A stretch of 64,000 bases of DNA from an uncultured beta proteobacterium (GTDB taxonomy: Bacteria > Pseudomonadota > Gammaproteobacteria > Burkholderiales > JACQAP01): assembly GCA_963695915.1 (NCBI GenBank), contig CAVOIO010000031.1:1760-65759 (forward strand), written 5' to 3'. Every line of letters begins with the position of its first letter. Positions within the stretch are counted from its first letter, which is position 1. The translations under genes and the position numbers were made by a program. This document shows, piece after piece, positions 36,610 to 54,402 of the stretch. Below the pieces are notes generated by a model, which did no database searches, was not told where the DNA came from, and was given only the letters and a program-made list of their open reading frames with translations.

Positions 36610-39342
36610 ATGACCGACATCCGACAAGACCCCGATGCGCTGCTCGCCAAAGTCCAGCGCGAGGAAGCGCAAACCGGCCGCGGCCGGCTGAAGATCTTTT
36701 TCGGCGCCTCGGCCGGCGTCGGCAAGACTTATGCGATGCTGTCCGCGGCACGCGAGTTGCGCGCCCAGACCGTGGACGTCGTGGTCGGCATTGTCGAGAC
36801 CCACGGCCGCAAGGACACTGCGGCGCTGCTCGAGGGATTGGAAGTATTGCCCGCGCGCTTTGTCGAATACCGCGGCACGCGCCTCGCGGAATTCGATCTC
36901 GACGGCGCACTGGCGCGGCGTCCCGCGGTTATCCTGGTGGACGAACTCGCGCACAACAACGCCGCCGGTTCGCGGCACCCCAAGCGCTGTCAGGACGTCG
37001 ACGAACTGCTCTCAGCCGGAATCGACGTCTATACCACCGTCAACGTCCAGCATCTCGAAAGCCTCAACGATGTGATCGGCGGCATCACCGGCATCAAGGT
37101 CTGGGAAACGGTTCCGGACCAGGTATTCGATCGCGCCGACGAGGTGACGCTGGTAGACCTGCCGCCCGATGAACTGCTGCAGCGACTGCGGCAAGGCAAG
37201 GTCTATCTGCCGGCGCAGGCCGAGCGGGCGGTCCGCAATTTCTTCCGCAAGGGCAATCTGATCGCGCTGCGCGAGCTGGCGCTGCGGCGCACCGCCGATC
37301 GCGTCGACGACCAGATGCTCGCCTATCGCCACGACGAGGCGATCCGCACGGTCTGGCATACGCGCGAATCGCTGCTCGCCTGCGTCGGGCCCGAACCCGG
37401 CGCGGAGAAACTGGTGCGCAGCACGGCACGGCTGGCCAAGCAGCTCGAAGTCGAATGGCATGCGGTATACGTCGAAACGCCGAAGCTGCAGCGGTTGCCG
37501 GAGGCACAACGCGAGCGCGTCCTGCGCGTGCTCACGTTGGCCCAGGAACTGGGCGCGCAAACGGCGACCATTCCCGGTCAGTCGCCCACCGAGGAGATTG
37601 TCGCCTACGCCCGCAGCCACAACCTGGCCCGCGTGGTGATCGGCCGAGGCCACCGGCGCCGGCTGCCGCTGGCCCGATCCTTTTCCGATCGGATCGCCGC
37701 ACTGGGCACCGACCTCGAGGTGGTCCAGGTCGGTCTCGGAGAAGGCCCTGCGCCGCGCCGCGCCGGCTCCGCCGCCGACGAGGACGGCGGTGCAATGCAG
37801 GGCGGCCTGCGCGCGGGCTATCTGTGGGCGGCCGTAACTTGCGCGCTCGCCACGCTGGCTGCCCTGCCGCTGGTTCCGTATCTGGATCTTGCCAATATCG
37901 TGATGCTGTTCCTGCTCGCGGTGGTACTGGTGGCCGTACGTTTCGGCCGCGGCCCGGCCATCCTGGCGGCGTTTCTCAGCGTGGGTTCGTTCGATTTTTT
38001 TTTCGTTCCGCCACGCTTTACCTTCGCGGTCTCCGACGTCCAGTACGTTGTCGTGTTCGGCGTGATGCTGGCAGTGGCGCTGATCATCGGCCATCTGACG
38101 TCGGGGCTACGCTATCAGGCGCGCGTTTCTGCCCACCGCGAAACACGCGCACGCGCGCTTTATGAACTGGCGCGCGAACTGTCGGGCGTGCTCGTGCGCG
38201 ACGAAGTCATCCGTATCAGCGACCGCCACATCGAGGCAAGTTTTCATGCGAAGACGGTCATCTTGTTGCCGGATGCGAACGAGAAGTTGCGCCAGCCTGG
38301 CGCGGACGAGGTGGCCAGCGCGCCGGCGATGGATCTGGCTGTCGCCCAGTGGGTATTCGACAACGGCAAGCCCGCCGGCTTCGGCACCGATACGCTGCCC
38401 GGCACCCGCGTGCATTATGCGCCGCTGCCTTCGCCGATGCGCACGCGCGGCGTGCTTGCGCTGGAGCCGGAAATGGCGAGATTGCTGCTAATTCCCGGAG
38501 CAGCGCCGGTTGCTGGAGACGTTCGCAGCGCTGATCGCGATTGCGCTGGAGCGCGTGCACTACATCGAGGTTGCGCAGGACGCGCTGGTGAAAATGGAGT
38601 CCGAACGCCTGCGCAATTCCATCCTGAGCGCGCTTTCGCACGATCTGCGCACGCCGCTCACCGCGCTGCTCGGCCTGGCCGAGTCGCTGGCGCTGACCAA
38701 GCCCGGATTGAGCGGCGTACAGCTGGAGTTGGCTGCGGCGATCCGCGACGAGGCAGTGCGGATGAATGCGCTGGTGAACAACCTGCTCGACATGGCGCGG
38801 CTCGAGGCCGGCGAAGTTCGGCTCAACCGCCAGTGGCAACCGCTGGAGGAAGTGGTCGGCAGCGCCGATCAAGGCACGCGAGCATCTGCTCGCTTCGCAC
38901 ACTGTCAGCATCGATCTGCCCAAGGCCTTGCCGCTGGTCGAATTCGACGCGGTACTGATCGAGACGGGTGCTGTGCAACCTGTTGGAGAACGCGGCAAAG
39001 TACACGCCGGCGCAGAGCGAGATTCGCATCGAGGCGAAAACGCAGGGAGCCGAAATGCATGTCAGCGTCGCCGACAACGGACCGGGTCTGGCGCCCGGGA
39101 GCGAAGAAACGATCTTCGAGAAATTCACCCGCGGCGCGCGCGAATCGGCGACACCGGGCGTGGGTCTGGGTCTGACCATCAGCCGCGCCATCGTCGAGGC
39201 GCACCGCGGCAGGATCTGGGCCGAAAACGACCCAGCCGGAGGCGCCCGGTTCGTGTTCGCGCTGCCACTCGGCACACCGCCGGCGATGCCACGCCTGCCG
39301 GAAGAACTGCCGGCCGTGGCTGCGCGAAAAGCAGTGACGTGA
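36610..39342 (+). CDS. kdpD: Sensor histidine kinase KdpD (frameshifted)
   Basis: GASAGVGKT, VDELAH, USP domain, 4 TM segments, SHDLRTPL H-box and GLGL G2 box. Confidence 0.95.
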
Positions 39343-40029
39343 CCGAACCCGTCCCCGTCGTCGTCGTGGTCGAGGACGAGAAGCAGATCCGTCGCTTCGT
39401 GCGCACCGCCCTGGAATCGGAAGGCTGCCGCGTGTTTCGAAGCACAGAGCGGACGACAGGGCCTGACCGAAGCCGCCACCCGCAAGCCGGACCTCGTGAT
39501 TCTGGACCTGGGACTGCCCGATCTCGACGGTGTCGAATTCATCCGCGACCTGCGCACCTGGAGCGTGCTTCCGATCATCGTGCTGTCGGCGCGCACCGAT
39601 GAGAACGACAAGATTGCGGCGCTGGACGCCGGCGCGGACGACTACCTGACCAAGCCGTTCGGTGTCGGCGAGTTGCTGGCGCGGGTGCGCGCCGCATTGC
39701 GCCGCGGAGCGACCGGAAGCGGTGGCGAGCCGGTGGTTGCGTTCGGCGACATTCGCCTGGACCTTGCAAACCGCAGCGTGCTGCGCGATGGTTCAACGGT
39801 CCACCTCACCCCGATCGAGTATCGCCTGCTGTCACTGCTTGCAGGCAACGCCGGCAAGGTGCTGACCCACCGGCAGCTTCTACGCGATGTTTGGGGCCCG
39901 TCGCACGTGGAGCATTCGCATTACCTGCGCATCTACATGGCACAACTGCGCCAGAAACTCGAAGCCGACCCGGCTCGACCACGCCACTTTCTCACGGAAC
40001 CCGGTGTGGGCTACCGGTTCGTGCCTTAG
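39339..40029 (+). CDS. kdpE: Response regulator KdpE (frameshifted)
   Basis: VEDE, LDLGLPD, GADDYLTKPF and YLRIYMAQLRQKLE winged helix. Confidence 0.93.
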
Positions 40030-43412: not shown

Positions 43413-44891
43413 TCACCTGCCACCGGACGGCGGTTTCCAGGGATCGCGCACCTGCGGCACTGCTTCCATCAGGAGTTCGAGCGCGCGCCGCAGGGATTTC
43501 TCGCCGGCTTGCGCTCCCTTGTAGTGGCCAAGGCGCACGACCACCAGGTCGTGCGTCGGAATGATGATCGTGTACTGTCCGCCGGCGCCCGCCATGAAGT
43601 ACGCGTCCTCCGGCACCGGCCATCTCCCGGTGCGATTGAGCCAGAAGAACCCGCCGTACACCGGCTTCGACCATGCCGGTGCCGGCGTACGCACGAAGTC
43701 GGCCCACCCCTCGGGCAGCAGCCGTTCGCCGTTCCAGACGCCGTCCTGCAGATACAGCAGTCCCAGGCGCAACCAGTCGCGTCCCGATCCCAGGTCATAA
43801 CCCTGAAAAGCAAGGTTGCCATACGCGTCGGCCTCCACAACCATGTTGCGGATTCCGAGCCGGTCGAACAGATGCCGCTGCGGATACGAAAGATATTCCT
43901 GCTTGCGTGCGACGACTGCCTTCTTGATCAGATAGTTCACCACCAGCGGATCGGAGTTGCGGTAACGCCCGACAGTATTGGCCGGCCACTGCGGCGGGCG
44001 CGTGACCGCCCAGCGAACGGAATCGATCGCGCCGGTATAGATGTAGAGGTGATCGGGATAGCCGCGCGCGGGATCGTAGTCCGGGTCCTGCGGAGCGACG
44101 AAACGCAGCCCGCTCGACATCCGCAGCAGGTCGGCAATACGGATGGCGCGCCGTGGATCGTCCGGCCGCTGCCATTCGTCCACCGGTGCGGGCGCCCACA
44201 GGTCATAAACGCCTTCATGGATGAGCTGGCCCATGAGCGTCGCCGGCGATGCTTTTGCCCATCGACCAGCTCGGTAGCCTCGTGGTGTGGTCGAGGCCAC
44301 GCTGGTAGCGCTCGGCGATGATGCGTCCCTTGTACGCCACCACGAACGCCGCGGTGAGCGCTTCCAGCAGGATCGAAAGCGGCTTCGACACCCGACAGCC
44401 ACTTTCGCCGCATCGATTGCGCGCGGAAGCGGCGTATCGGGGAGCCGGTCTCCCATAGGCCACGGTTGCGTTGCCGGGTCGGGCAGCGACGACCCGATTT
44501 TCGCCGGGGTGAAAAACACCGAGTCCGCGCCGCGCGGCAGTGTGACGCATCCCTGGTCGGGAAGAAGCCTGGCGGTGCGCGTAACCCCGTTGGGCAATGT
44601 CAGGTGCACGGCGTGCGCCTTCTGATCCACGACCGTTTTCGTAACCAGGCGCCGCTCGGCACGAGGCGACACGAAGAACCCGTCTTCGTCGGCAGCCGTT
44701 GCGAGATCGCGGCCGGTGATGAACAGCGCCGAGCACAGAATCTTCGCGTAGCCCGCGGTCATGTGTTCTACGGGATCTCCGGGCGGCACCTCCCACGCGG
44801 TTGGGTACTCTTCCGGCGCGGTCCGCTGCTGCGCGCTGCACACGCCGACTGGCATCAGAAGCACGCCGAAAATCATCAGGCGTCGTAGCAT
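43413..44891 (-). CDS. Secreted serine hydrolase, beta-lactamase class C / aminohexanoate-dimer hydrolase family (frameshifted)
   Basis: SMGK (SxxK) in an alternative frame, LLRMSSGL, YRN, RDWLRLGLLYLQDG and AGAGGQ. Confidence 0.8.
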   Translation of the reverse strand: MLRRLMIFGVLLMPVGVCSAQQRTAPEEYPTAWEVPPGDPVEHMTAGYAKILCSALFITGRDLATAADEDGFFVSPRAERRLVTKTVVDQKAHAVHLTLPNGVTRTARLLPDQGCVTLPRGADSVFFTPAKIGSSLPDPATQPWPMGDRLPDTPLPRAIDAAKVAVGCRSRFRSCWKRSPRRSWWRTRDASSPSATSVASTTPRGYRAGRWAKASPATLMGQLIHEGVYDLWAPAPVDEWQRPDDPRRAIRIADLLRMSSGLRFVAPQDPDYDPARGYPDHLYIYTGAIDSVRWAVTRPPQWPANTVGRYRNSDPLVVNYLIKKAVVARKQEYLSYPQRHLFDRLGIRNMVVEADAYGNLAFQGYDLGSGRDWLRLGLLYLQDGVWNGERLLPEGWADFVRTPAPAWSKPVYGGFFWLNRTGRWPVPEDAYFMAGAGGQYTIIIPTHDLVVVRLGHYKGAQAGEKSLRRALELLMEAVPQVRDPWKPPSGGR

Positions 44892-44937: not shown

Positions 44938-45327
44938 CTAGAACATCGTATTGGAGTGTGCCGCCTTACCCGGGACAACTTGGAGCACATCCCAATGCTC
45001 GACAATCTTCCCGTTTGCATCGAGCCGGAAAATGTCGATGCCGGCCCAGTCGCGGTCCTCGAAAGTGGGCCACTCCTGATGGCAATGCAGCACCACGTAG
45101 TTTCCTTCCGCGATAACTCTCTTGAATGAAACCCGCTTGCCCGGATACTCCCTGGCCATTCGCTCGAAATAGGCGATGAAGGCATCCTTTCCATCCGCCA
45201 CTTCCGGATTGTGCTGGATGTACTCTTCGCCGGCATATTTCTCGATCGCCTCTCGCGGCCGGTTCTGATTGAACATCAGGTCGTAAAAGGCGGTTACCGT
45301 TTTCTTGTTCTGATCGAGCTGGTTCAT
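44938..45327 (-). CDS. SnoaL-like / NTF2-fold protein
   Basis: [17 protein letters not shown] and KIVEHWDV; may be an old distal cassette. Confidence 0.85.
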
Positions 45328-45370
45328 CGGCGACGCCCTCCGTGGAAGTAGAAAACGCTACTTGTTGGAC

Positions 45371-45440
45371 GCTTAAGGTTACGCAAAACGGCGCGTGCGA
45401 CGTCGCCGTGCGCGTCCGTGTTGCGCAGTGGGGGTTAGCT
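45371..45440 (-). other. attC site (degenerate, distal)
   Basis: Minus strand AGCTAAC..ACGGACGCGCACG..CGCACGCGCCGT..CTTAAGC. R' is mutated; R'' contains the stop of the upstream ORF. Confidence 0.65.
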
Positions 45441-46502
45441 TCCATGGCCGGTCCGGTTGCGAGTTCCCAAGACCCTGAACAACAGCTCCAAGGGGTAACT
45501 GGCGAGAATGAAGCAGGCAGTCATGCCAAACGCAACGGCACACCAGAGCCCCAGAACGTATACATAGACGATAGCAGGCGGGTGGCCTCCTCCTCCGGCG
45601 GACAGCGCAGCGAGCGCCGCAAGGACAATAGCCACCCCGCCGAACGAGATCAGGTGCCATCGCCACAAGCGCTTGCGCTTGCGCAAGACCTCTTCGGTCG
45701 CAGTTGCCCGGGCGAGCAACCATCCCCAGAAGAGCACACCGAGCAGGCTGGCGGCAACGATGAGTCCGGTGATGAACACCGGCAGGTTGTTTAACGCGGA
45801 ATAACGCGCCAGGAGCGGCGCCTCATACCAGAGTTCCGCGTCAGTCAACGGACGATCGACTTCGCGCGAGGTGATCTCCACGAAATGCAGCACATCTTCA
45901 TCCTTGAGCCGCTCGAATTTGACGATCGACCGGTTTGCGTTGAGCACCCAAAGGCGCTCGCGCCAGACGATCTTGACGTTCGCGCTGTTGGTGAGCGTTT
46001 CGGAGCGTTCGAATACGGTGTACTGCGGAGTCGAAAGCGCGCTGTTGGCCGCATATGACTGCAGGTAGCGGGCTCGTTCGGCTTCATCGCCAAGGCGACG
46101 AGGATCGGCAGAGAACAATTTGAACACGAACACGGGAAAGATCTGGCTGCGGTCCCGGTAGTGGCCAAAAAGGAACGGGTCGTCAAACGACAATTCCTGG
46201 TAACGCCTGCCATGCGGGAGGTAGCGGTAGTACTGCTTCGAATCCGACCAATTCACCAATATGGCGCCCTGCTCGCGCTTTTCGACATACTTGAAGCGGC
46301 CGTCGCGGCGCGCGCACCGTTCGAAGAGCTCCTCGGTATACCGTTGGCCGGGCTCGTCACGACGGCCCCACTTCCCGGCGTCGCAATAGCTGATTGCGCT
46401 GAAATAGCCCGCTGCGATGGACTCGATCGAGATTGGTTCTTCCCCCACGCCGGACAAAGGTACAAGGACTAAGGCCACGAGGACAAGACGATGCATCGGC
46501 AT
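45435..46502 (-). CDS. Cassette ORF: hypothetical protein with signal peptide and three C-terminal TM helices
   Basis: Intact 355-aa ORF exactly filling the space between two attC sites; its stop lies inside AGCTAAC. Confidence 0.75.
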   Translation of the reverse strand: MPMHRLVLVALVLVPLSGVGEEPISIESIAAGYFSAISYCDAGKWGRRDEPGQRYTEELFERCARRDGRFKYVEKREQGAILVNWSDSKQYYRYLPHGRRYQELSFDDPFLFGHYRDRSQIFPVFVFKLFSADPRRLGDEAERARYLQSYAANSALSTPQYTVFERSETLTNSANVKIVWRERLWVLNANRSIVKFERLKDEDVLHFVEITSREVDRPLTDAELWYEAPLLARYSALNNLPVFITGLIVAASLLGVLFWGWLLARATATEEVLRKRKRLWRWHLISFGGVAIVLAALAALSAGGGGHPPAIVYVYVLGLWCAVAFGMTACFILASYPLELLFRVLGTRNRTGHGS

Positions 46503-46515
46503 GGATGCTCGGGAA

Positions 46516-46576
46516 AGCTAACGCTGGCGCTCAGCCGCGCCGCGCTAGCGGTGTCGGCAGGAGCGAATTGTTGGTC
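46516..46576 (-). other. attC site
   Basis: Minus strand GACCAAC...imperfect palindrome...GTTAGCT, 61 bp. Confidence 0.85.
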
Positions 46577-47028
46577 TATCGACTGGTTTCAGAATCATAT
46601 TTCGACTTTTTCGACTGATAGACGCCTTGTTCCGGGCCATGAGAAACGATGAAGCATTGGTACCAGGTTTTTCTCAATAGAAACGTCCTGCCTTTGTTGG
46701 TTACCAGAAAGGCAGCCCAAAGCCGGTTGTTGGCAGCAACATGAAGTTCGCTGATCAACGTTGTACTAATTTCTCCATCCAAAATACTCTTGATCTCTGA
46801 GCTAACTGTATCTTTGTCTCCACGATTTAGCGAATAGACCAAATGAACTTCCTTTACGGCATCGTCCTTGAAAAGATCCTGGAGTGAGGTGCCGCTCCAT
46901 CCACTGCTCGTCTTGAGGTTGATATCGTCCTGATGGATGATGATCTCGGACTCCGAGATTGCAATTGCCCATTGAGGGCAGAATAGAACTGAAATCAGAA
47001 CGACCAAATTGAGTAAATGTTTCATCAT
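46576..47028 (-). CDS. Cassette ORF: low-GC secreted hypothetical protein
   Basis: Signal peptide MMKHLLNLVVLISVLFCPQWAIA; visibly AT-rich; bounded by attC sites. Confidence 0.75.
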   Translation of the reverse strand: MMKHLLNLVVLISVLFCPQWAIAISESEIIIHQDDINLKTSSGWSGTSLQDLFKDDAVKEVHLVYSLNRGDKDTVSSEIKSILDGEISTTLISELHVAANNRLWAAFLVTNKGRTFLLRKTWYQCFIVSHGPEQGVYQSKKSKYDSETSR

Positions 47029-47034
47029 TTTCCG

Positions 47035-47113
47035 GGCCAACGCCGACCATCAGGGGCCGACGAAAGCAAGCGAGGCGCCGCTTTCGTCGGTCCCCTGCAT
47101 GGTCTTGTTGGGC
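47035..47113 (-). other. attC site
   Basis: Minus strand GCCCAAC..CAGGGGACCGACGAAAGC..GCTTTCGTCGGCCCCTG..GTTGGCC, 79 bp. Confidence 0.9.
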
Positions 47114-47123
47114 GTCATTTCGT

Positions 47124-48116
47124 TTATCGGATCACCTCGTTGGCCCGCAGTAGGATTGACTCTGGGATCGTGATACCGAGCGCCTTGGCGGTCTTGAGGT
47201 TAACGACGAGCACGTGCTGCATCGGCTGCTCGATGGGCAGATCTCCGGGCCTGGCCCCCCTGAGGATCTTGTCCACATAGTCGGCTGCCCGACGGAACAT
47301 CACAGCAAAATCTGGCCCGTACGTGATGAGGCCGCCAGCCTCGACGTAATCGCGCGAAGGGTAGATCGCCGGGAGACGTTGCCGGGCGGCGAGCGCCGTG
47401 ACTTGCCCTCGATGTGAAAAGAATACGGGATCGGGAAGCACTAGTACCGCCTGAGCCTTTCGCCCCGCCTGCTCGAAGGCGCGGTCGAGCGCTGCGGGTT
47501 CGCGCACCTCGATGAGACGGAGCTTCAGGCCCTGCGCGGGGGCAATGGCCTTAAGCTCTTTCGCCAGGTCTCTGTCTATCGCGGTGGTTGGGTTCGCGAT
47601 AACGGCGAGGGTTGAAAGCCGCGGGACCATGTCCTTTAGCAGTTCCACCCACTTGCTCGCCAGCCCTTGAGCAAGCCCTACCGAAAGCCCGGTCAGGTTG
47701 CCCCCGGGCCGGGCCAAGCTGGCCACGAGCCCACTGCCGACCGGGTCTCCCATCACTGCGGCGACAATTGGGATTGTGCTGGTCGCATTCTTAGCTGCGA
47801 TCGCTGCTGACGTGCTCCAAGTGACAAGCACGTCGACATCGCGCTCAACCACCTCGTTCATAAGCCCGGGCAGCCGCTCGGGCCGGCCCTCGGCAGAGCG
47901 CGCCTCCACGATGAGGTTCTGACCGTCGACGTAGCCCAGTTCGCGCATGCGTTCCCAGAACGCACTAAGGCCACGCGGGCCGGTGGAGGCCGATTGCGGG
48001 TCGACGAAACCCACTCGCACGACCTTCTGCACTGGCTCTACGGCTCGCGAGGGTTGGGTCCCTAGCGCTGCCACAGTCAGACCAGCGAGGAGGAGCAAAA
48101 GACCGCGCCGTTTCAC
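47124..48116 (-). CDS. Cassette ORF: orphan ABC transporter substrate-binding protein (putative Trp/Tyr-type family), paralog 1
   Basis: GYVDGQN, DPVGSGLVASLARPGGNLTG, GGLITYGPD, YVDKILRGARPGDLPIEQP and NLKTAKALGITIP..LLRANEVIR. Confidence 0.88.
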   Translation of the reverse strand: MKRRGLLLLLAGLTVAALGTQPSRAVEPVQKVVRVGFVDPQSASTGPRGLSAFWERMRELGYVDGQNLIVEARSAEGRPERLPGLMNEVVERDVDVLVTWSTSAAIAAKNATSTIPIVAAVMGDPVGSGLVASLARPGGNLTGLSVGLAQGLASKWVELLKDMVPRLSTLAVIANPTTAIDRDLAKELKAIAPAQGLKLRLIEVREPAALDRAFEQAGRKAQAVLVLPDPVFFSHRGQVTALAARQRLPAIYPSRDYVEAGGLITYGPDFAVMFRRAADYVDKILRGARPGDLPIEQPMQHVLVVNLKTAKALGITIPESILLRANEVIR

Positions 48117-48179
48117 GCGATCACCTGATCCGCACGAAGCACGCGCGCATGACTCGGTTCCACTTTGCTCCCTGATAAC

Positions 48180-48276
48180 GCCCAACGCAGAGCTAACCGG
48201 GCGCCGACGCGCGGCACGCACGGCGGGAACCCAACGGCGACGCCGTTGGGCGCTCGGGTTGAGCGCCGGGTTGGGC
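48180..48276 (-). other. attC site
   Basis: GCCCAAC...GTTGGGC, 97 bp, with an internal CCCAACGGCG-A-CGCCGTTGGG hairpin. Confidence 0.85.
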
Positions 48277-48545
48277 TGTGATTGAAGGCATTGACGCTAG
48301 CATACCGCGACCTTTATGAGACAACATCGCCTGCAGGAAACCACCACTGCTCGCATGACCACGAACCCACGGCTTGCGTCACGCGAATCGTGATCGCAGG
48401 CGCGAGCTTACGCGTACCGACCCTGCGACAAGATCAGTGCCGCTCGCTACGTGACGCAAACGGATCCGGCGCTTGCACACGGAAGCCAGTTCGGTAGGCG
48501 AGCATCTGCGAATTCGACGAACGATTCCAGATTCACCCGAGAGCA
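48277..48545. other. Apparently gene-less integron cassette
   Basis: About 270 bp between two attC sites with no convincing ORF; its core sites are complementary (GTTGGGCTG / CAGCCCAAC). Confidence 0.6.
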
Positions 48546-48634
48546 GCCCAACGTGTTGTTCAGCCGCGCCGGCCACAAATCTTACAGAAAACTCTGCGGC
48601 GCTTCACAGCGTCGGCTGGAACAACGGGTTAGGC
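48546..48634 (-). other. attC site
   Basis: Plus strand GCCCAACGTGTTGTTCAGCCG...CGGCTGGAACAACGGGTTAGGC, 89 bp. Confidence 0.88.
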
Positions 48635-48640
48635 TGCTGG

Positions 48641-49552
48641 TGGGTACGGTCCAGACACATCGGTAACAGAATAGTCCGGGGACATAGGTAACAGTTTATC
48701 CATACTGCGGGCACCGAACGAGGTGCCCATGCCTTGGAGTGAAACTACACCTATGGACCAGAAGACGCAGTTCATTGCCGATTACCTCCGTCAAAGCCTG
48801 TCGATGAGTGAGCTGTGCGAGCTCTACCGCATCAGCCGCAAAAAAAACCGGCTACAAGCTGGTGGATCGCTACCTCAGGCACGGGCCTTCGGGGTTGGAG
48901 GAGCGCTCGCGAAGACCATCGAGCAGTCCCAATCACACACCCGAACACATCGTCGAGGCCATTGTCGCGCTACGCCAACGGCATCCGTCCTGGGGCGCGA
49001 AGAAGCTGCTGCCGATCCTCGAGGGGCGTCACCCGAACTGGGAGCTGCCCGGGCGCAGCACGGTGTGCGACATCTTGAGCCGCCAGGGGTTGGTGCTCAG
49101 GAAACGCAACCGGCGCCACATCGGCCACCCGGGCAAGCCCACCAGCCAGATCCTTGGCCCCAATGATTGCTGGAGCGCGGACTTCAAGAGCCAGTTCAAA
49201 ACCGGCAATGGCCTCTACTGTTATCCGCTCACCGTGACCGATGGCTTCAGCCGCTATCTGCTCGGCTGCCAAGGGCTGGCATCGACCAGCGTGGCAGAAT
49301 CTAAACCCGTGTTCACGCGCCTGTTTCGCGAGTACGGTCTGCCCAAGCGCGTCCGCACCGACAACGGGGTGCCCTTCGCGACCAATACGCTCGCGAGGCT
49401 CTCGCAGCTCTCCGGCCTGGTGGGTGCGTCTAGGGGTGCTGCCCGAGTTGATTGAGCCGGGCAAGCCGCAACAGAACGGGCGCCACGAGCGCATGCACCG
49501 CACGCTCAAAGCCGAGACCACGCGCCCGCCGGCTAACAGCTGCCGCGGCCAG
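48641..49552 (+). mobile_element. Truncated IS481-family element (transposase from 48729, frameshifted, 3' part missing)
   Basis: MPWSETTPMDQK, HPSWGAKKL, WSADFK, RTDNGVPF and PQQNGRHERMHRTLK (DDE). The left end has tandem ACATCGGTAACAG / ACATAGGTAACAG repeats. Confidence 0.85.
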
Positions 49553-49589
49553 CGCTGCCAGGCACGCACGGCTGGCCAGCGTGGCGTCG

Positions 49590-51131
49590 TCACCGACCCA
49601 TCTCCTTCCACAGTCGGGGTTCGATCGATGCGGCTGCCAAGAATCCGCCCATGAATGCGCCCTGAATTCCCGGGCTGACGACGTCCTGCCCGGCGAGCAG
49701 CAACCCGAGCACCGGCGTGCGGACCTTGAGTGAGCTGTGGCTCATGCGCTCAGCTGACATCTCAAGCCCGTACATTGCACCCCGATCGGCCACGACGAAT
49801 GACGCCTGCGATAGAGGGGTCGAGAGTTCATGGAAATCGATCATTGGCGCGAGCTGCGGAAAGTGGCGCTTGAATTGCGCAAGCAGGCTTTCGGCGATCC
49901 AGGCTTTGGTTGCCTCGTACTCCTCGGGCCGATCTCCCGGCGCACCACGTGTCCACGCCGAGAACGGTTCCCAACGACAGATCGCTATGACCTCGGCGGT
50001 ATGGTGTTCAGGGTCTCGATGAGCGGCGTCCTTGAGCGAAGGGAATGACACGAACATCGCCGGCGCGTCTTCGTCCGCGGGGCGCTCCCACACCCGGCCA
50101 ACGTCGTCGCTCTCGTATATCCAAACGTTCGCTGCCGTGGCTCCACGCTGGCGAATATCACCGCGGAACCCCAAATATAGACTCACGTATGAGAGGCCCG
50201 ACTTGAGCGACTCGACTGCGTCACGCCATTCCGGCGCAACGCCTTCAGGAAGCGCTGCGGCCGTGTTGTGCGCGCCCATGGCCGAAAAAACTATGGGCGC
50301 GTCGATCGACTCGCCGTTTGCCATGCGTACGCCGGTCACTCGGCCAAGTGCGACGCGGATCTCCGCAACCGTGGAACGAGTACGCAATTCGCCACCAGCG
50401 CCGATAATGGTTTCTCCCAGGGCCTGGGCAAACTTCGCCGGGCCGCCGAGGGGGTAGTAGGCGCCGGCAAAGTAGCTGCCCGTTACGAGGGCATGTATCG
50501 CGAATGGTGACTGCGCTGGCACCATTCCGTAATCGCCCCAACGCGCAGTGAGCAGCGCTGCCAGGCGTTTATCGCCAATATCACGCACCACTTCGGCAGT
50601 CGTAGTGCCAAGGGCCCGGCGCACGTGTCGCGCGTTGAACCAGCGCATGGGCACCGCGAGAAGGGCGGGAAGCGCTTTGGCTGCGAATAGCGCCCGGCTC
50701 GCTTTTCGCGCCTCGTCCAAGGCCGTGAAATACCTTTCGATGGCTGCGACCTCGTTGGGGAAAGTGGCCTTCAGCCGCGCGATGTATGCCGCTCGCGGTG
50801 CCTCGATCGGGAACTCGAACCCGGGGAGTCGCACGATGTCGTAGGGCGACCCCAGGGACGCGAAGCGTAATCGGCCGTCTGTTAGCCAACGCAGCATGCG
50901 ACCGAACTGGTCCTCGGATCCCGGCGTCTCGCCAAGGCCCCCGATGTAATGCACTCCGGTCGCAAATGTGTATTCACCGCGGATGAAAGTCTGTGTGAGG
51001 CCGCCGAGCTGGAGATGCTGTTCGAGCACGAGAACGCGCCGACCGCGCTTCGCCAACGCCGCCGCAGCCGTAAGTCCACCGATTCCCGAACCGATGACAA
51101 TCGCGTCGCATCTGCGCTCGTTGAAACTCAT
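49590..51131 (-). CDS. Cassette ORF: FAD-dependent oxidoreductase, phytoene dehydrogenase / retinol saturase family
   Basis: IGSGIGGLTAAA Rossmann motif, FATGVHYIG, YYPLGG, STPLS..F, GAMYGL and LLLAGQD. Confidence 0.85.
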   Translation of the reverse strand: MSFNERRCDAIVIGSGIGGLTAAAALAKRGRRVLVLEQHLQLGGLTQTFIRGEYTFATGVHYIGGLGETPGSEDQFGRMLRWLTDGRLRFASLGSPYDIVRLPGFEFPIEAPRAAYIARLKATFPNEVAAIERYFTALDEARKASRALFAAKALPALLAVPMRWFNARHVRRALGTTTAEVVRDIGDKRLAALLTARWGDYGMVPAQSPFAIHALVTGSYFAGAYYPLGGPAKFAQALGETIIGAGGELRTRSTVAEIRVALGRVTGVRMANGESIDAPIVFSAMGAHNTAAALPEGVAPEWRDAVESLKSGLSYVSLYLGFRGDIRQRGATAANVWIYESDDVGRVWERPADEDAPAMFVSFPSLKDAAHRDPEHHTAEVIAICRWEPFSAWTRGAPGDRPEEYEATKAWIAESLLAQFKRHFPQLAPMIDFHELSTPLSQASFVVADRGAMYGLEMSAERMSHSSLKVRTPVLGLLLAGQDVVSPGIQGAFMGGFLAAASIEPRLWKEMGR

Positions 51132-51158
51132 GCTCTTTCGCCTACTGGGTTTTCACCC

Positions 51159-51237
51159 GCCCAACAATACGCATCACTGGCCGGAGCCGGCGGGCGAAGC
51201 CCGCTGGTGACGGTCCGAGTGCAGGCGCGGGTTGGGC
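51159..51237 (-). other. attC site
   Basis: GCCCAAC...GCGGGCGAAGCCCGC central hairpin...GTTGGGC, 79 bp. Confidence 0.85.
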
Positions 51238-51294
51238 GGCACTCTCGCTACTCCTTCTCCGGCCGGGCCCAGAGGGCGCGCGAGCCCGTGCGGT

Positions 51295-52269
51295 TCATCG
51301 GACTACCTCGTCGGCGCGGAGCAGTATCGATTGAGGGATTGTCAGCCCAAGCGCCTTAGCGGTCTTAAGATTGACGACCAGCCTGAACTTTGAGGCTTGC
51401 TCCACTGGCAGATCGCTGACCTTTGCACCCTTGAGCAATCGATCGATATAGTAGGCGGAGCGGCCAAACATTTCGGCTAGAGATGGTCCATAGGACATGA
51501 GGCCCCCGGCCTTGACCGGGATCTCCTCTTGATACATGGTCGGCATCTTCCTCTCGAGAGCCAGGGATGCGATCTGAACACGCTGCTGTGTGAACATCGG
51601 GGAAAACAGGAGGACCACAGCTTGTGCCCCTTGCTTCCTCGCCGCACTGAATGCGGCCGCGTAGTCATAGGAACCGCGCAGCTCAATGCGCTCCAGGTCC
51701 AGTCCCAGGGCGCGGGTGCTTGGCTCTACCGCTGCGAGTTGCCGGGCGCTGGCCGAGTCCCAGAAGACCGCCACCCGCGAAGCGTTGGGCAAGGCTTCCC
51801 TTAGCAACTCTAGGCGTTTGCCAACGAGCTCGGACGTGCGGGAGAAGACTCCAGTCACGTTGCCGCTTGGGCGGCTGAAGCTGTCTATCAACCCGGATGC
51901 TACGGGGTCGTGGTCGAAAGATATGATGATGATCGGAAGCGTGCTGCTCGCTTGCCTCGCGGCTCGTGCCGTGGGCTCTCCACCCACCACAATAACGTCT
52001 GCCCCGAGGTCCACGAGTTCTCTCGCAAGGGCAGGCAGCCGATCCATGTGGTTCTGCGCGGCCCGGCGCTCGATCCTGATGTTGCTCCCGTCAACGTAGC
52101 CGAACTCGCGGAGTCCTTCACGGATTGCCGGAAGAACCGGATCCTCTGGTAGCGCTATGACCATCAGGACGCCCACGACTGGAACCTTGGCGCGTTCCTG
52201 CGCAGCGACGGGAAGGGACAAGGTCATGAAGCACAAGACGGCCGTTCCGAGGCAGCAGCGCGTTTTCAT
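51295..52269 (-). CDS. Cassette ORF: orphan ABC transporter substrate-binding protein, paralog 2
   Basis: GYVDGSN, DPVASGLIDSFSRPSGNVTG, GGLMSYGP, DLPVEQ and NLKTAKALGLTIPQSILLRADEVVR. Confidence 0.88.
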   Translation of the reverse strand: MKTRCCLGTAVLCFMTLSLPVAAQERAKVPVVGVLMVIALPEDPVLPAIREGLREFGYVDGSNIRIERRAAQNHMDRLPALARELVDLGADVIVVGGEPTARAARQASSTLPIIIISFDHDPVASGLIDSFSRPSGNVTGVFSRTSELVGKRLELLREALPNASRVAVFWDSASARQLAAVEPSTRALGLDLERIELRGSYDYAAAFSAARKQGAQAVVLLFSPMFTQQRVQIASLALERKMPTMYQEEIPVKAGGLMSYGPSLAEMFGRSAYYIDRLLKGAKVSDLPVEQASKFRLVVNLKTAKALGLTIPQSILLRADEVVR

Positions 52270-52334
52270 CGGATCACCTTGCACCGCCAACTATCACGGA
52301 CTTGTCCATACTCCTTGCCTGTCTCCTATGTGAC

Positions 52335-52393
52335 GCCCAACGCCTGAATTCAGCGGCGCGCTTCAGCGCGTCCGCTGGAATGAGAGGTTAGCC
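52335..52393 (-). other. attC site
   Basis: Minus strand GGCTAAC..CAGCGGACGCGCTGAAGCGCGCCGCTG..GTTGGGC, 59 bp. Confidence 0.9.
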
Positions 52394-52949
52394 ATTCGAT
52401 CACCCGACCCGCATCTGCATCGGATGGGAAGACAGGGTAAAGCACCTCTTCGATCCGCCCCGCATGGACAATCATAGTAAGACGTTTGATGAGCTGGAAA
52501 CCGGCGAAAGCGAACGTTGGCAGCCGTAAGAGCCGTGCGAAGTGAAGCTGTGCATCGCTTAGAAGGGGAAACGGTAGATGAAGCCTTTGAACAGCCTCCG
52601 ATTGATACTCAGTATCTTGCGTACTCAGGCCGTACACCGTTGCGCCCAAGGCGGCAAGCTCCGCGTAGTGGTCCCGATAGGCACAGGACTGCGGCGTACA
52701 ACCACGTGCGCCCGGGATGGCGTTCCACGCTGCCGCACCGCCTGGCGGTTCCTGATCAGGTCGTCCGGTTCGAGGGTAACAATAGACAACTAGCCAAGGT
52801 CGACCTTCCTTGGACAAATCGACCGTTAGTCCGGAAGTAGCCCTCAAGCCAATTGACGGCAGCATTGACCGACGAAGGTGATCACACGCCCCGTCGTCTT
52901 CTGGGGCGGGCAGGTTCTCGGGAAGAGAATAGAGATTGTCCGTTCGCAT
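52350..52949 (-). CDS. First cassette ORF: peroxiredoxin (BCP/PrxQ-like)
   Basis: YPRTG..IPGARGCTPQSC, GLSTQ, FPLLSD and KRLT; the ORF reads through into the attC. Confidence 0.88.
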   Translation of the reverse strand: MRTDNLYSLPENLPAPEDDGACDHLRRSMLPSIGLRATSGLTVDLSKEGRPWLVVYCYPRTGRPDQEPPGGAAAWNAIPGARGCTPQSCAYRDHYAELAALGATVYGLSTQDTEYQSEAVQRLHLPFPLLSDAQLHFARLLRLPTFAFAGFQLIKRLTMIVHAGRIEEVLYPVFPSDADAGRVIEWLTSHSSGRAEARR

Positions 52950-52953
52950 AGAT

Positions 52954-53010
52954 GGCTAACTGGAAGTAGCAATCCCATTGACGGAATATTTTTCGTCAAT
53001 TTGACGAATA
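52954..53010 (-). other. Putative attI site
   Basis: Core GTTAGCC with no attC palindrome upstream. AT-rich, with an inverted repeat ATTGACG-N10-CGTCAAT at 52977-53000. Lies between the first cassette and the intI relic. Confidence 0.65.
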
Positions 53011-53111
53011 AACTGGTCGAGCGCATCGCAACTAATTGATATTTGAACAGTTGGCATCTCGGGACTCCTCCCAATAGGCTATCAAGACGCCCGACAAGCC
53101 GGCTCGACGAA

Positions 53112-53215
53112 AAGCCTACGCTCGGACCGAATCCGGAACAAGTTCGCCTGAAGCATCGAAGCGTCAGGATGGGGCCGCATACGTCGATTGGACAGGCGGG
53201 TTCGTCACCTTCAAC
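53112..53215 (+). pseudogene. intI: 5' relic of an integron integrase
   Basis: With small frameshifts it reads KPTL-DRI-EQVRLKHRSVRM..AYVDWTGGFVTFN, matching the IntI N-terminus (P.LLDQVR..IRLKHYS.RTE.AYV.WI.RFI.FH). It diverges from the array. Confidence 0.7.
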
Positions 53216-53295
53216 CGGGATTCTCAGTTCCATCCGGGAATACAATAAGGAACCGCGGCAATCTGGCCGTTCGCGGCATGAAAAAGGGAGGCCTC

Positions 53296-54402
53296 ATGAG
53301 TTCTTCTTTGACACGTCGCGAGTTTCTGGCCCGTGCTGGAATTGCGGTTGCGGGCATCCAGACTTTCGAGCACCTTGACCCCTGCTGTGCCTTTGCCGCC
53401 GATGCCAAGACATCGGACAAGGAACTCTTCGAACTCAAACCCGTGGCCGACGGCATCTATGCCGCTATTGCCGCGCCCCGCTACAAGGTCAATTCCAACG
53501 CCGCGGTAATCGTCACCAACGACGGCGTGATCGTGGTGGACTCGCACTCCAAACCTTCCGCCGCGTATGCGCTGTACCGGGAGATCCAGTCGATCACGAA
53601 GCAACCGATCAAAAAGATCATCAACACCCATTTCCACTGGGATCACTGGCAGGGCAACCAGGTCTATGCCGAAGCCAACCCCAACCTGGAAATTATTTCC
53701 TCACAGCGCACGCTGGAGAACATGACCGATCCCGATGCCGGAGGCGGCGGCCTGCCGTACATCGAGAAGCAGTTGGCGAACTTGCCGAAAGAAATCGAGG
53801 CGCTGAAGGCCGACATCCTGCGGGCGGCCGACTCCGGACAGAAAGCCCGACTCGAGGCGAACCTGCAGCAGACCGAGGCGTACCTGGAGGAACTGAAGCA
53901 TATCAAGCCGCCGCTCCCAAACAGGACAGTCGCCAATACGGTTACGCTCAACGAAGGCGGGCGCGAAATTCAGATTCTGTTGCTGGGACGCGGCCACACC
54001 GACGGCGACATCTTCATCCACTTGCCGAAGGAAAAAGTGGTCGTGACTGGGGACGCGGTGATCGACTGGATGCCGTTCATGAATGACGGCTTTCCGGAGG
54101 AGTGGGTGCAAACCCTCGATGCGCTGGAGAAATTCGACTTCACACAGATCATTCCCGGGCACGGCGAAGTCGCGTCCAAGGCTCATCTGGGATTCTTCCG
54201 GGGCTATCTCGCCGATCTCGTCGCCGCGGTCAAGTCGGCGCACGCCGACGGGGCCAGCCTGGATGAAATGAAGAAAGTGATCCCGGATCAACTCGCTGCG
54301 AAATACGAGCGGGGAATGTCGAAGTATCCGCTGGGCCAGTTTCGCGATCGCATAGGACTGAATATTGAAGCGGCCCATCGAAAAGTCATCAGGAAATCCT
54401 GA
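53296..54402 (+). CDS. Tat-exported metallo-beta-lactamase-fold hydrolase
   Basis: TRREFL Tat motif; THFHWDH (HxHxDH), GHTDGD, TGD and PGHG. Confidence 0.88.
   Translation: MSSSLTRREFLARAGIAVAGIQTFEHLDPCCAFAADAKTSDKELFELKPVADGIYAAIAAPRYKVNSNAAVIVTNDGVIVVDSHSKPSAAYALYREIQSITKQPIKKIINTHFHWDHWQGNQVYAEANPNLEIISSQRTLENMTDPDAGGGGLPYIEKQLANLPKEIEALKADILRAADSGQKARLEANLQQTEAYLEELKHIKPPLPNRTVANTVTLNEGGREIQILLLGRGHTDGDIFIHLPKEKVVVTGDAVIDWMPFMNDGFPEEWVQTLDALEKFDFTQIIPGHGEVASKAHLGFFRGYLADLVAAVKSAHADGASLDEMKKVIPDQLAAKYERGMSKYPLGQFRDRIGLNIEAAHRKVIRKS

Follow-up and report, generated by a model that had tools for sequence, protein, structure and literature searches.

When a chromosomal integron loses its integrase gene, does the cassette array behind it freeze, or can an integron integrase encoded elsewhere continue to remodel it? 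Integrons are best known for the spread of antibiotic resistance, yet most of them are chromosomal and have a role that is not known. The question is posed by a 64,000-nucleotide stretch (hereafter the window; contig C31, positions 1760-65759) of the 4.28-Mb, 47-contig assembly of an uncultured soil Burkholderiales bacterium (G000, completeness 76.8%; other G-numbers denote related genomes, and congeners are members of its genus). A preliminary description of the window had proposed a fossil chromosomal integron with seven attC recombination sites, a putative attI site and a ghost of the integrase gene intI, and had left open whether the array was frozen or serviced in trans. We found that the locus is an integron remnant, placed between a serine-hydrolase gene and a metallo-beta-lactamase-fold (MBL) gene; positions 44938-53215 are read as a degenerate chromosomal integron whose integrase gene has been reduced to a stub, a reading to which we assign a probability of about 0.85. 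As to the question itself, a comparison across five species tips the balance slightly towards an array that would have been serviced in trans after its own integrase gene died.

The identity of the locus is most readily seen at the head of the array, where a blastn match at 78% over 170 nt (E 4e-35) joins window positions 52958-53125 to the region just upstream of intI in congener G021, an intact integrase gene that scored 478.5 bits in the TIGR02249 family search. A pairwise alignment to the same intact integron gave 194/252 identical positions (77%) over window positions 52958-53205. The putative attI is therefore homologous to the attI of an intact integron, and its position at the array head, next to the 5′ end of the intI stub, together with its GTTRRRY-type core, is that predicted for an attI.

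The intI stub diverges from attI and is the sole trace of intI in the window. A DNA profile of the initial 240 nt of intI, built from 11 congeners, matched positions 53122-53214 at E 0.0015 over the 4.28-Mb genome (nhmmer), the fourth-best hit after those on contigs C34 (4e-22), C19 (2e-13) and C21 (1e-3). The alignment to the G021 intI reaches 53205, and weak similarity perhaps continues to about 53215, where the nhmmer match ends. These results bear out the earlier identification of a frameshifted integrase N-terminus diverging from the array, and they move its start from 53112 to 53081. Furthermore, the orthologous stub in G050 is unbroken, and tblastn matched it to IntI at 69% over 39 aa (E 6e-12). 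Judged from its sequence, no integrase can be made from the window's locus, because the start codon has changed from ATG to ATC (53081-53083), three indels are present and everything beyond about codon 45 has been deleted. The proposed loss of the integrase was likewise upheld: no intI passed the TIGR02249 cut-off anywhere in the 76.8%-complete G000 assembly, and the best TIGR02249 matches there lack model positions 182-237 and resemble general tyrosine recombinases. In the sample of 41 genomes (40 relatives and G000), 20 had an intI above this cut-off. The locus thus lacks the intact intI with an IntI-specific domain that distinguishes a complete integron.

Six of the seven proposed attC sites are well formed: on the minus strand, between 46516 and 52393, each starts with RYYYAAC, forms an imperfect stem and ends with GTTRRRY. 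The R boxes of these six pair at 4-7 of 7 Watson-Crick positions, and each folds into one imperfect stem, that of attC4 being branched. The sites are 59-97 nt long with little mutual similarity, such that MAFFT combined with RNAalifold could align the R boxes alone; a motif noted by eye, AAC-N8-[CG]CAGC[CG]GAC, is common to window sites and attC sites of relatives. The bulged-base asymmetry of attC arms determines the recombining strand. In minus orientation the 5′ arm was richer in bulged bases in five of the six sites, the sixth being the branched attC4, and the strand implied by this asymmetry agrees with the direction of the open reading frames (ORFs), the substantial ones between 44938 and 52949 lying on the minus strand throughout.

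To score the sites we used two models, whose training material came from the array side of eight intI genes above the TIGR02249 cut-off in relatives. A weight model, comprising a 28-nt 5′ arm and a 26-nt 3′ arm, had as its training set 23 candidate sites that adjoin intact intI genes of relatives, were picked by generic criteria and included no window sequence. Genome-wide it returned 67 real hits against 4 in reversed-sequence decoys at 25 bits or more, and 31 against 0 at 30 bits or more. The six window sites scored 27.8-42.9 bits on the minus strand, their mirror images scoring lower or falling below the list, and relaxing the threshold to 18 bits added one weak window hit only, at 39791. 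A covariance model, R1, was built from two window sites (attC2 and attC5); in the arrays of relatives it found 14 sites at E<0.06, every one of them on the strand that the adjacent intact intI predicts. R1 was too specific for the other window sites, recovering only attC3 (E 0.025), and was kept for picking and aligning sites in relatives; a second covariance model, R2, was built solely from the 14 R1-chosen sites of other genomes. Across the 64-kb window R2 gave exactly six significant matches, with scores of 28.4-72.7 bits (E 6e-5 to 4e-16) and without exception on the minus strand; the next-best score was 15.1 bits (E 0.13). The R2 scores of attC2 and attC5 are inflated because R1 was seeded on these two sites. 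A loose hairpin scanner (AAC...GTT plus folding energy) was rejected as a genome-wide detector, reversed decoys out-hitting the real genome, and was retained just for nominating training sites beside intact intI genes.

The six sites were thus confirmed by both R2 and the weight model, and the seventh, proposed at 45371-45440, was not. It has an R″ box, AGCTAAC, at 45434-45440, overlapping the stop codon of a 355-aa ORF, and a hairpin at 45384-45429; it contains no GTTRRRY, scored 6.8 bits in the weight model and was not among the R2 hits at E≤5. Because its R″ exactly complements the core upstream of the 355-aa cassette, the element is best read as a decayed attC. The same relation runs through the array. 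As had been described for most cassettes, the upstream core exactly complements R″ of its cassette in 5/7 cassettes, with one mismatch in each of the other two, a degree of own-core matching with P=0.0095 over all 5040 permutations. This is the mark expected of cassettes that were formerly circular.

Repeats or terminators of the ordinary intergenic kind could in principle account for the palindromes, and chance for the likeness to an integrase. Some results point that way or weaken the case for an integron. The loose AAC...GTT scan found as many hits in reversed decoys as in the genome; Rfam scans, of a database that has no attC family, returned nothing relevant (whole window at the gathering threshold; 45300-53300 at E≤1); hmmscan of the stub's two single reading frames against NCBIfam gave no integrase hit; and tblastn of the window stub gave three colinear pieces in three frames with a marginal sum E of about 0.1. 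In addition, both attC models are stand-ins built here from other genomes and not those of IntegronFinder, the R2 training sites had been chosen via R1, which was itself seeded on two window sites, and the E-values of both covariance models are rough. Nevertheless, two models from other genomes picked exactly six sites on the strand that fits the ORFs, and the alignment of attI and stub with an intact integron has an E-value of 4e-35. We consider a chance resemblance extremely improbable.

A degenerate integron could have stopped changing when its integrase died, and the locus in relatives, a comparison that the preliminary description had recommended, bears directly on this point. Orthologs of the MBL-fold gene were present in 28 of 37 genomes of the genus (a tally that includes the unpublished G049, on which no conclusion drawn here depends). 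The same stub and attI occupy the same locus in five species, namely that of the window, G001, G050, G002 and G052, in the last four of which the MBL protein is 86-92% identical to the window's (86% in G050). Three others, G051, G046 and G043 (MBL protein 93-94%), have an empty site in which the serine-hydrolase gene lies about 170 bp from the MBL gene, with no array and no stub; the locus is therefore absent from 3/8 close species. Seven duplicate locus records of these genomes were left out of the count. The window and G050 diverge from intact intI at the same base, and G002 has the same junction sequence; G001 and G052 carry further stub changes, an ~85-nt deletion and an insertion. Five species share one stub, whose end point coincides wherever it is readable, and by parsimony the truncation would be old, predating the split of the stub-bearing species.

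Behind this common stub the cassettes differ. The first cassettes of the window, G001, G002 and G052 are mutually unrelated (no blastn similarity at E≤1e-5), the G050 contig ending at the crossover so that its first cassette is not visible, and the window and G001 have only the distal SnoaL and 154-aa cassettes in common. Among six aligned sequences, from the five stub-bearing loci and the intact G021 locus, mean pairwise identity was 0.90 over 60 nt of attI (52958-53017), 0.72 in the spacer and 0.72 in the stub with gaps, and it fell from 0.90 to 0.39 exactly at the crossover, on the cassette side. Collectively, the differing first cassette in all four species where it is visible, the array breaks falling exactly at the G|TT crossover, and an attI that stays 90% identical while the stub decays suggest that the array was remodelled at attI after the truncation, by an integron integrase that would have been encoded elsewhere. 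We favour such past servicing in trans by a small margin of confidence only. Among the relatives, G052 carries two intact intI genes, both on other contigs, one intact copy is present in G046, and in G002 there is one intI elsewhere with an in-frame TGA. G043 and G051 have N-terminal intI stubs (model positions 1-42 and 3-43, respectively). In G000 the array is probably static now, given that no intact intI was found there, with about 23% of the genome unassembled. In many congeners (G043, G002, G052, G009, G041, G016, G042, G004 and G007) the contigs break 0.2-2.3 kb upstream of the MBL gene; such breaks would be expected if repeat-rich cassette arrays stood at that place and failed to assemble.

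The opposing possibility is that no lineage has changed its array since the integrase died, the cassette differences being older or reflecting whole-locus replacement across the conserved flanks. Chromosomal integrons of Xanthomonas, which lie downstream of ilvD and have undergone lineage-specific inactivation of intI (Gillings et al. as described in PMC12444791, in the part of that article dealing with these integrons), offer a precedent. They resemble the present locus in occupying a fixed site within a genus, in having intI truncated, frameshifted or deleted in many lineages, and in retaining arrays that are mostly without known function. According to the same part of that article, however, Xanthomonas strains with the same lesion usually have identical arrays, as a static array would predict, whereas here four different first cassettes stand behind one stub; other flanking genes surround the locus as well, and its host belongs to an uncultured genus of soil Burkholderiales. 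Differing arrays behind one common lesion are thus the opposite of the pattern described for Xanthomonas (PMC12444791, same part), and they are the less ordinary point of this locus. A static array is also favoured by the lack of an intact intI in G000, G001 (98% complete), G051 and G043, and by the eroded look of the attC sites in the G001 array, only one of which reached 18 bits in the weight model. These observations weigh against servicing in trans, as do further considerations: the arrays may differ because homologous recombination exchanged entire loci, or because they had diverged before the truncation, provided that the stub allele spread afterwards; and a small overlapping ORF could instead account for the conservation of attI. 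A separate point against the preferred reading is that scans of the minus strand at 52800-53400 returned no sigma-70 consensus match, not even at a looser 8-of-12 threshold. An array frozen everywhere would nonetheless have to accommodate four different first cassettes joined exactly at G|TT to an already truncated platform, the truncation end point common to the window and G050, six window attC sites that are still well formed, an attI more conserved than the stub (0.90 vs 0.72), and the two intact intI genes elsewhere in G052. We therefore regard it as possible yet rather unlikely.

Less probable still is a transplanted fragment, in which a truncated array with attI and 5′ intI was inserted in the spacer between the hydrolase and MBL genes, or spread between species, and was never complete at this site. 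In the closest relatives by MBL protein (G051, G046 and G043), a clean spacer of 170 bp is homologous to the sequence on either side of the insert, and G021, which has the most similar attI and intI, carries its integron and its MBL gene on different contigs. The empty-site spacer in G051 and G046 includes about 20-40 nt without a clear counterpart in the window, a further point against the preferred history; the empty site may thus reflect either loss of the array or a pre-insertion state. On the other side, the more distant G050 as well as G001, G002 and G052 all carry the stub at this position, so that one loss in G051, G046 and G043 is simpler than several gains, and no transposon ends or target duplication were seen by eye at the borders. 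Together, these considerations leave transplantation improbable and the degenerate integron, with its array perhaps serviced in trans for a time, as the reading we prefer; the five-species comparison offers a natural test case of whether an integrase from elsewhere can keep servicing such an array.

The locus can also be placed among known systems. A cluster of attC sites lacking an integron integrase, or CALIN, is a class defined with IntegronFinder (Cury et al. 2016, PMC4889954; here and below, the available part of that paper) by at least two attC sites, each within 4 kb of its neighbour, and by the lack of an integrase gene among them. Our locus has six attC sites by the stand-in models, the largest gap being 2.5 kb (48634-51159), and only a stub of intI. 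It is thus a CALIN by these definitions, or a degenerate chromosomal integron as in Xanthomonas. The likeness to the CALIN described there extends to cassettes that are mostly non-resistance or without known function and to an insertion-sequence remnant inside the array. In that part of the paper, a sedentary chromosomal integron has more than 19 attC sites or is present in all members of a species, with similar attC sites; the present locus has six dissimilar ones and an uneven distribution among close species. As reported there, half of the genomic attC clusters are without an integrase and how they arise is a matter of debate, one origin named being a formerly complete integron that lost its integrase. 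Unlike the CALIN described there, the present one retains attI and a 5′ intI stub, so that an origin by decay of intI is visible. Recognisable intI pseudogenes were reported near 15/279 CALIN with a C-terminal profile and a required coverage above 50% (PMC4889954), a test that an N-terminal stub of about 45 codons would escape. The locus therefore shows one clear way in which a CALIN arises, namely in-place decay of intI, of which a short 5′ remainder survives that the usual C-terminal pseudogene search would miss. Apart from this stub-type origin and the question of servicing in trans, it is an ordinary example of a documented process.

A small ORF of 33 codons spans attI and resembles ORF-11 of the class 1 attI1 as portrayed in the relevant part of PMC8876359: both are short ORFs within attI with their own Shine-Dalgarno motif, both cross the crossover point, and both end in a TAG at positions 3-5 of the cassette's GTTRRRY core. 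In the window this core is GTTAGCC, and the stop codon is thus supplied by the cassette. Unlike the 11-codon ORF-11, to which it bears no resemblance in sequence, the present ORF extends to 33 codons and is broken in 2/6 homologous loci, being open with a Shine-Dalgarno motif in the other four, including the intact G021. The ATG of the first cassette lies 6 nt past the TAG and has no ribosome-binding motif of its own; by analogy with ORF-11 in class 1 integrons, the first cassette may be translated by coupling to the 33-codon ORF. A Pc promoter inside the stub was considered and rejected, neither promoter scan having found a consensus promoter. Between attI and intI, inspection by eye found a LexA-box-like CTGG-N8-ACAG in the intact G021 and CTGT-N8-ACAG in other intact relatives; the corresponding site in the window (~53030-53050) has the left half TTGA and looks degraded by eye.

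These features raise the idea that attI, the attI-spanning ORF and the 5′ stub persist as a functional platform for cassette landing and expression, on which integrases of other integrons in these multi-integron genomes would act. In integrons of class 1, the promoter Pc lies 223-252 bp from the crossover (PMC8876359, in the part cited above), and the stub ends about 257 bp from it, just beyond that distance. The idea also fits one truncated platform bearing a different first cassette in each of four species, and an attI that remains 90% identical while the stub drifts. We consider it doubtful; if it were true, many CALIN would not be debris but satellite arrays that are still live.

Table 1. 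Features of the integron remnant and its flanks (window coordinates; attC entries give R2 and weight-model scores).
Feature	Coordinates	Strand	Remarks
Beta-lactamase-family serine hydrolase (flank)	43413-44879	minus	
SnoaL-like ORF, 129 aa	44938-45327	minus	PF12680 2e-16; distal end of inserted segment
attC7, degenerate	45371-45440	minus	R″ AGCTAAC and hairpin, without R′ core
Cassette 7 ORF, 355 aa	45435-46502	minus	no family in Pfam/NCBIfam scans
attC6, 61 nt	46516-46576	minus	154-aa ORF cassette; R2 28.4 bits, E 5.9e-5; weight model 34.0 bits
Cassette 6 ORF, 154 aa	46576-47040	minus	no family; G+C 0.48
attC5, 79 nt	47035-47113	minus	second ABC substrate-binding-protein cassette; R2 72.0 bits (inflated); weight model 31.5 bits
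Cassette 5 ORF, paralogous ABC substrate-binding protein	47124-48221	minus	PF04392 2.6e-51
attC4, 97 nt	48180-48276	minus	gene-less 366-bp cassette; repeated attC/cassette family; R2 33.3 bits, E 3.4e-6; weight model 30.2 bits
Gene-less cassette 4 body	48277-48545	minus	no ORF conserved across 8 copies
attC3, 89 nt	48546-48634	minus	closes cassette with FAD oxidoreductase gene and IS481 remnant; R2 39.0 bits, E 1.2e-7; weight model 38.2 bits minus vs 27.9 plus
IS481-family transposase remnant in cassette 3	48723-49654	plus	PF13565, PF00665, PF13011, PF13683
Cassette 3 ORF, 513 aa, FAD-dependent oxidoreductase, phytoene-desaturase/CrtI type	49590-51131	minus	PF13450, PF01266, PF01593
attC2, 79 nt	51159-51237	minus	first ABC substrate-binding-protein cassette; R box 7/7 paired; R2 72.7 bits (inflated); weight model 27.8 bits
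Cassette 2 ORF, 331 aa, ABC transporter substrate-binding protein	51295-52290	minus	PF04392 1.7e-44
attC1, 59 nt	52335-52393	minus	peroxiredoxin-like cassette; R″ GGCTAAC, R′ GTTGGGC; R2 38.4 bits, E 1.8e-7; weight model 42.9 bits, the genome's second best
Cassette 1 ORF, 199 aa, AhpC/TSA-Redoxin family	52350-52949	minus	PF00578 1.8e-12, PF08534 3.6e-12
attI	52954-53017	minus	crossover core GTTAGCC (52954-52960) and conserved 60 nt on integrase side
33-codon ORF spanning attI	52956-53057	minus	GGGAGG Shine-Dalgarno motif 7 nt before ATG
intI stub	53081-53215	plus	about the first 43-47 codons (~135 nt)
MBL-fold gene with Tat signal (flank)	53296-54402	plus	

The cassette ORFs are all directed away from the platform and include no recognised resistance genes (Table 1). 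The oxidoreductase of cassette 3 matched NCBIfam TIGR02730 at 5e-37, below the family cut-off. The IS481 remnant in this cassette, a pseudogene of three overlapping ORF pieces in three frames, occupies the interval from the oxidoreductase gene to attC3, and about 60 nt of its final piece coincide with the 3′ end of the oxidoreductase ORF. In cassette 5 the listed ORF start overlaps attC4, and the true start is therefore probably further in. The 154-aa ORF of cassette 6 has a homolog in the G001 array (84% aa), and the region of this cassette (46500-47000) has a G+C content of 0.48 against about 0.62 around it, which fits a foreign origin. The 355-aa ORF of cassette 7 is absent from the G001 array; a simple excision footprint was sought there and dropped, the junction being degenerate and uninformative.

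The SnoaL-like ORF is present in G001 (95% aa) and absent from the empty-site relatives G051, G046 and G043, and it is probably an old cassette without a recognisable attC. Upstream of it on the minus strand, at ~45337-45355, lies a perfect 6-bp hairpin, AAGTAG-N6-CTACTT, whose 3′ half with its neighbours (CTACTTCCA) equals the nine bases preceding the crossover in attI. The hairpin motif is not conserved in G001, and the attI-like bases are either a chance match or a relic of an older attI.

Integron remains are not confined to the window. Genome-wide, with 150 of 3812 candidates scored, R2 found at least 45 attC sites at E≤0.01 on seven contigs: 20 on C34, 8 on C21, 6 on C31, 5 on C26, 4 on C42 and one each on C17 and C1. 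Besides the window's stub, G000 has two clear intI stubs (C34 and C19) and one weak one (C21). A second, larger dead integron occupies C34:78402-105811. Its intI stub (nhmmer E 4e-22), on the minus strand, has an in-frame TAG, and homology ends near codon 58; the array starts beside the stub with the attI core CCTAAC|TAGAAGTAG, followed by 20 R2-positive attC sites on the plus strand. Its attI and intI belong to a lineage other than the window's, closest to the G010 type. The C19 match (38901-39022; E 2e-13) is a 5′ intI stub without attI, the C21 match (241432-241543; E 1e-3) is a weak 5′ intI match, and C40:30011-30106 holds a 3′ intI fragment (model positions 283-314) with a TAA inside. A common hot spot for the cuts of the four stubs was considered and rejected: their ends differ (codons ~43-47 in the window, ~47 in C19 and ~58 in C34, the C21 match being weak), and with a profile limited to the first 210 coding bases near-coincident ends are expected by chance.

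The gene-less cassette links the window to the C34 array. This cassette of about 366 bp belongs to an eight-copy family, comprising window positions 48180-48555 and seven paralogs on C34 (at 79631, 80856, 81222, 81586, 84629, 87364 and 93599) that are 84.6-89.6% identical, three copies of the family being in tandem. Among its strongly conserved blocks is a long-range inverted repeat of 10 bp, TTGCGTCACG / CGTGACGCAA (window plus strand), and a promoter-like TTGACG-N18-TATGAG occurs near 48287-48316 on the strand opposite to the cassettes. A known RNA was considered for this cassette and discarded, there being no Rfam match at E≤1; the cassette may encode a small RNA. Given that the family has eight copies in the same genome, not all attC sites of the array point to outside donors.

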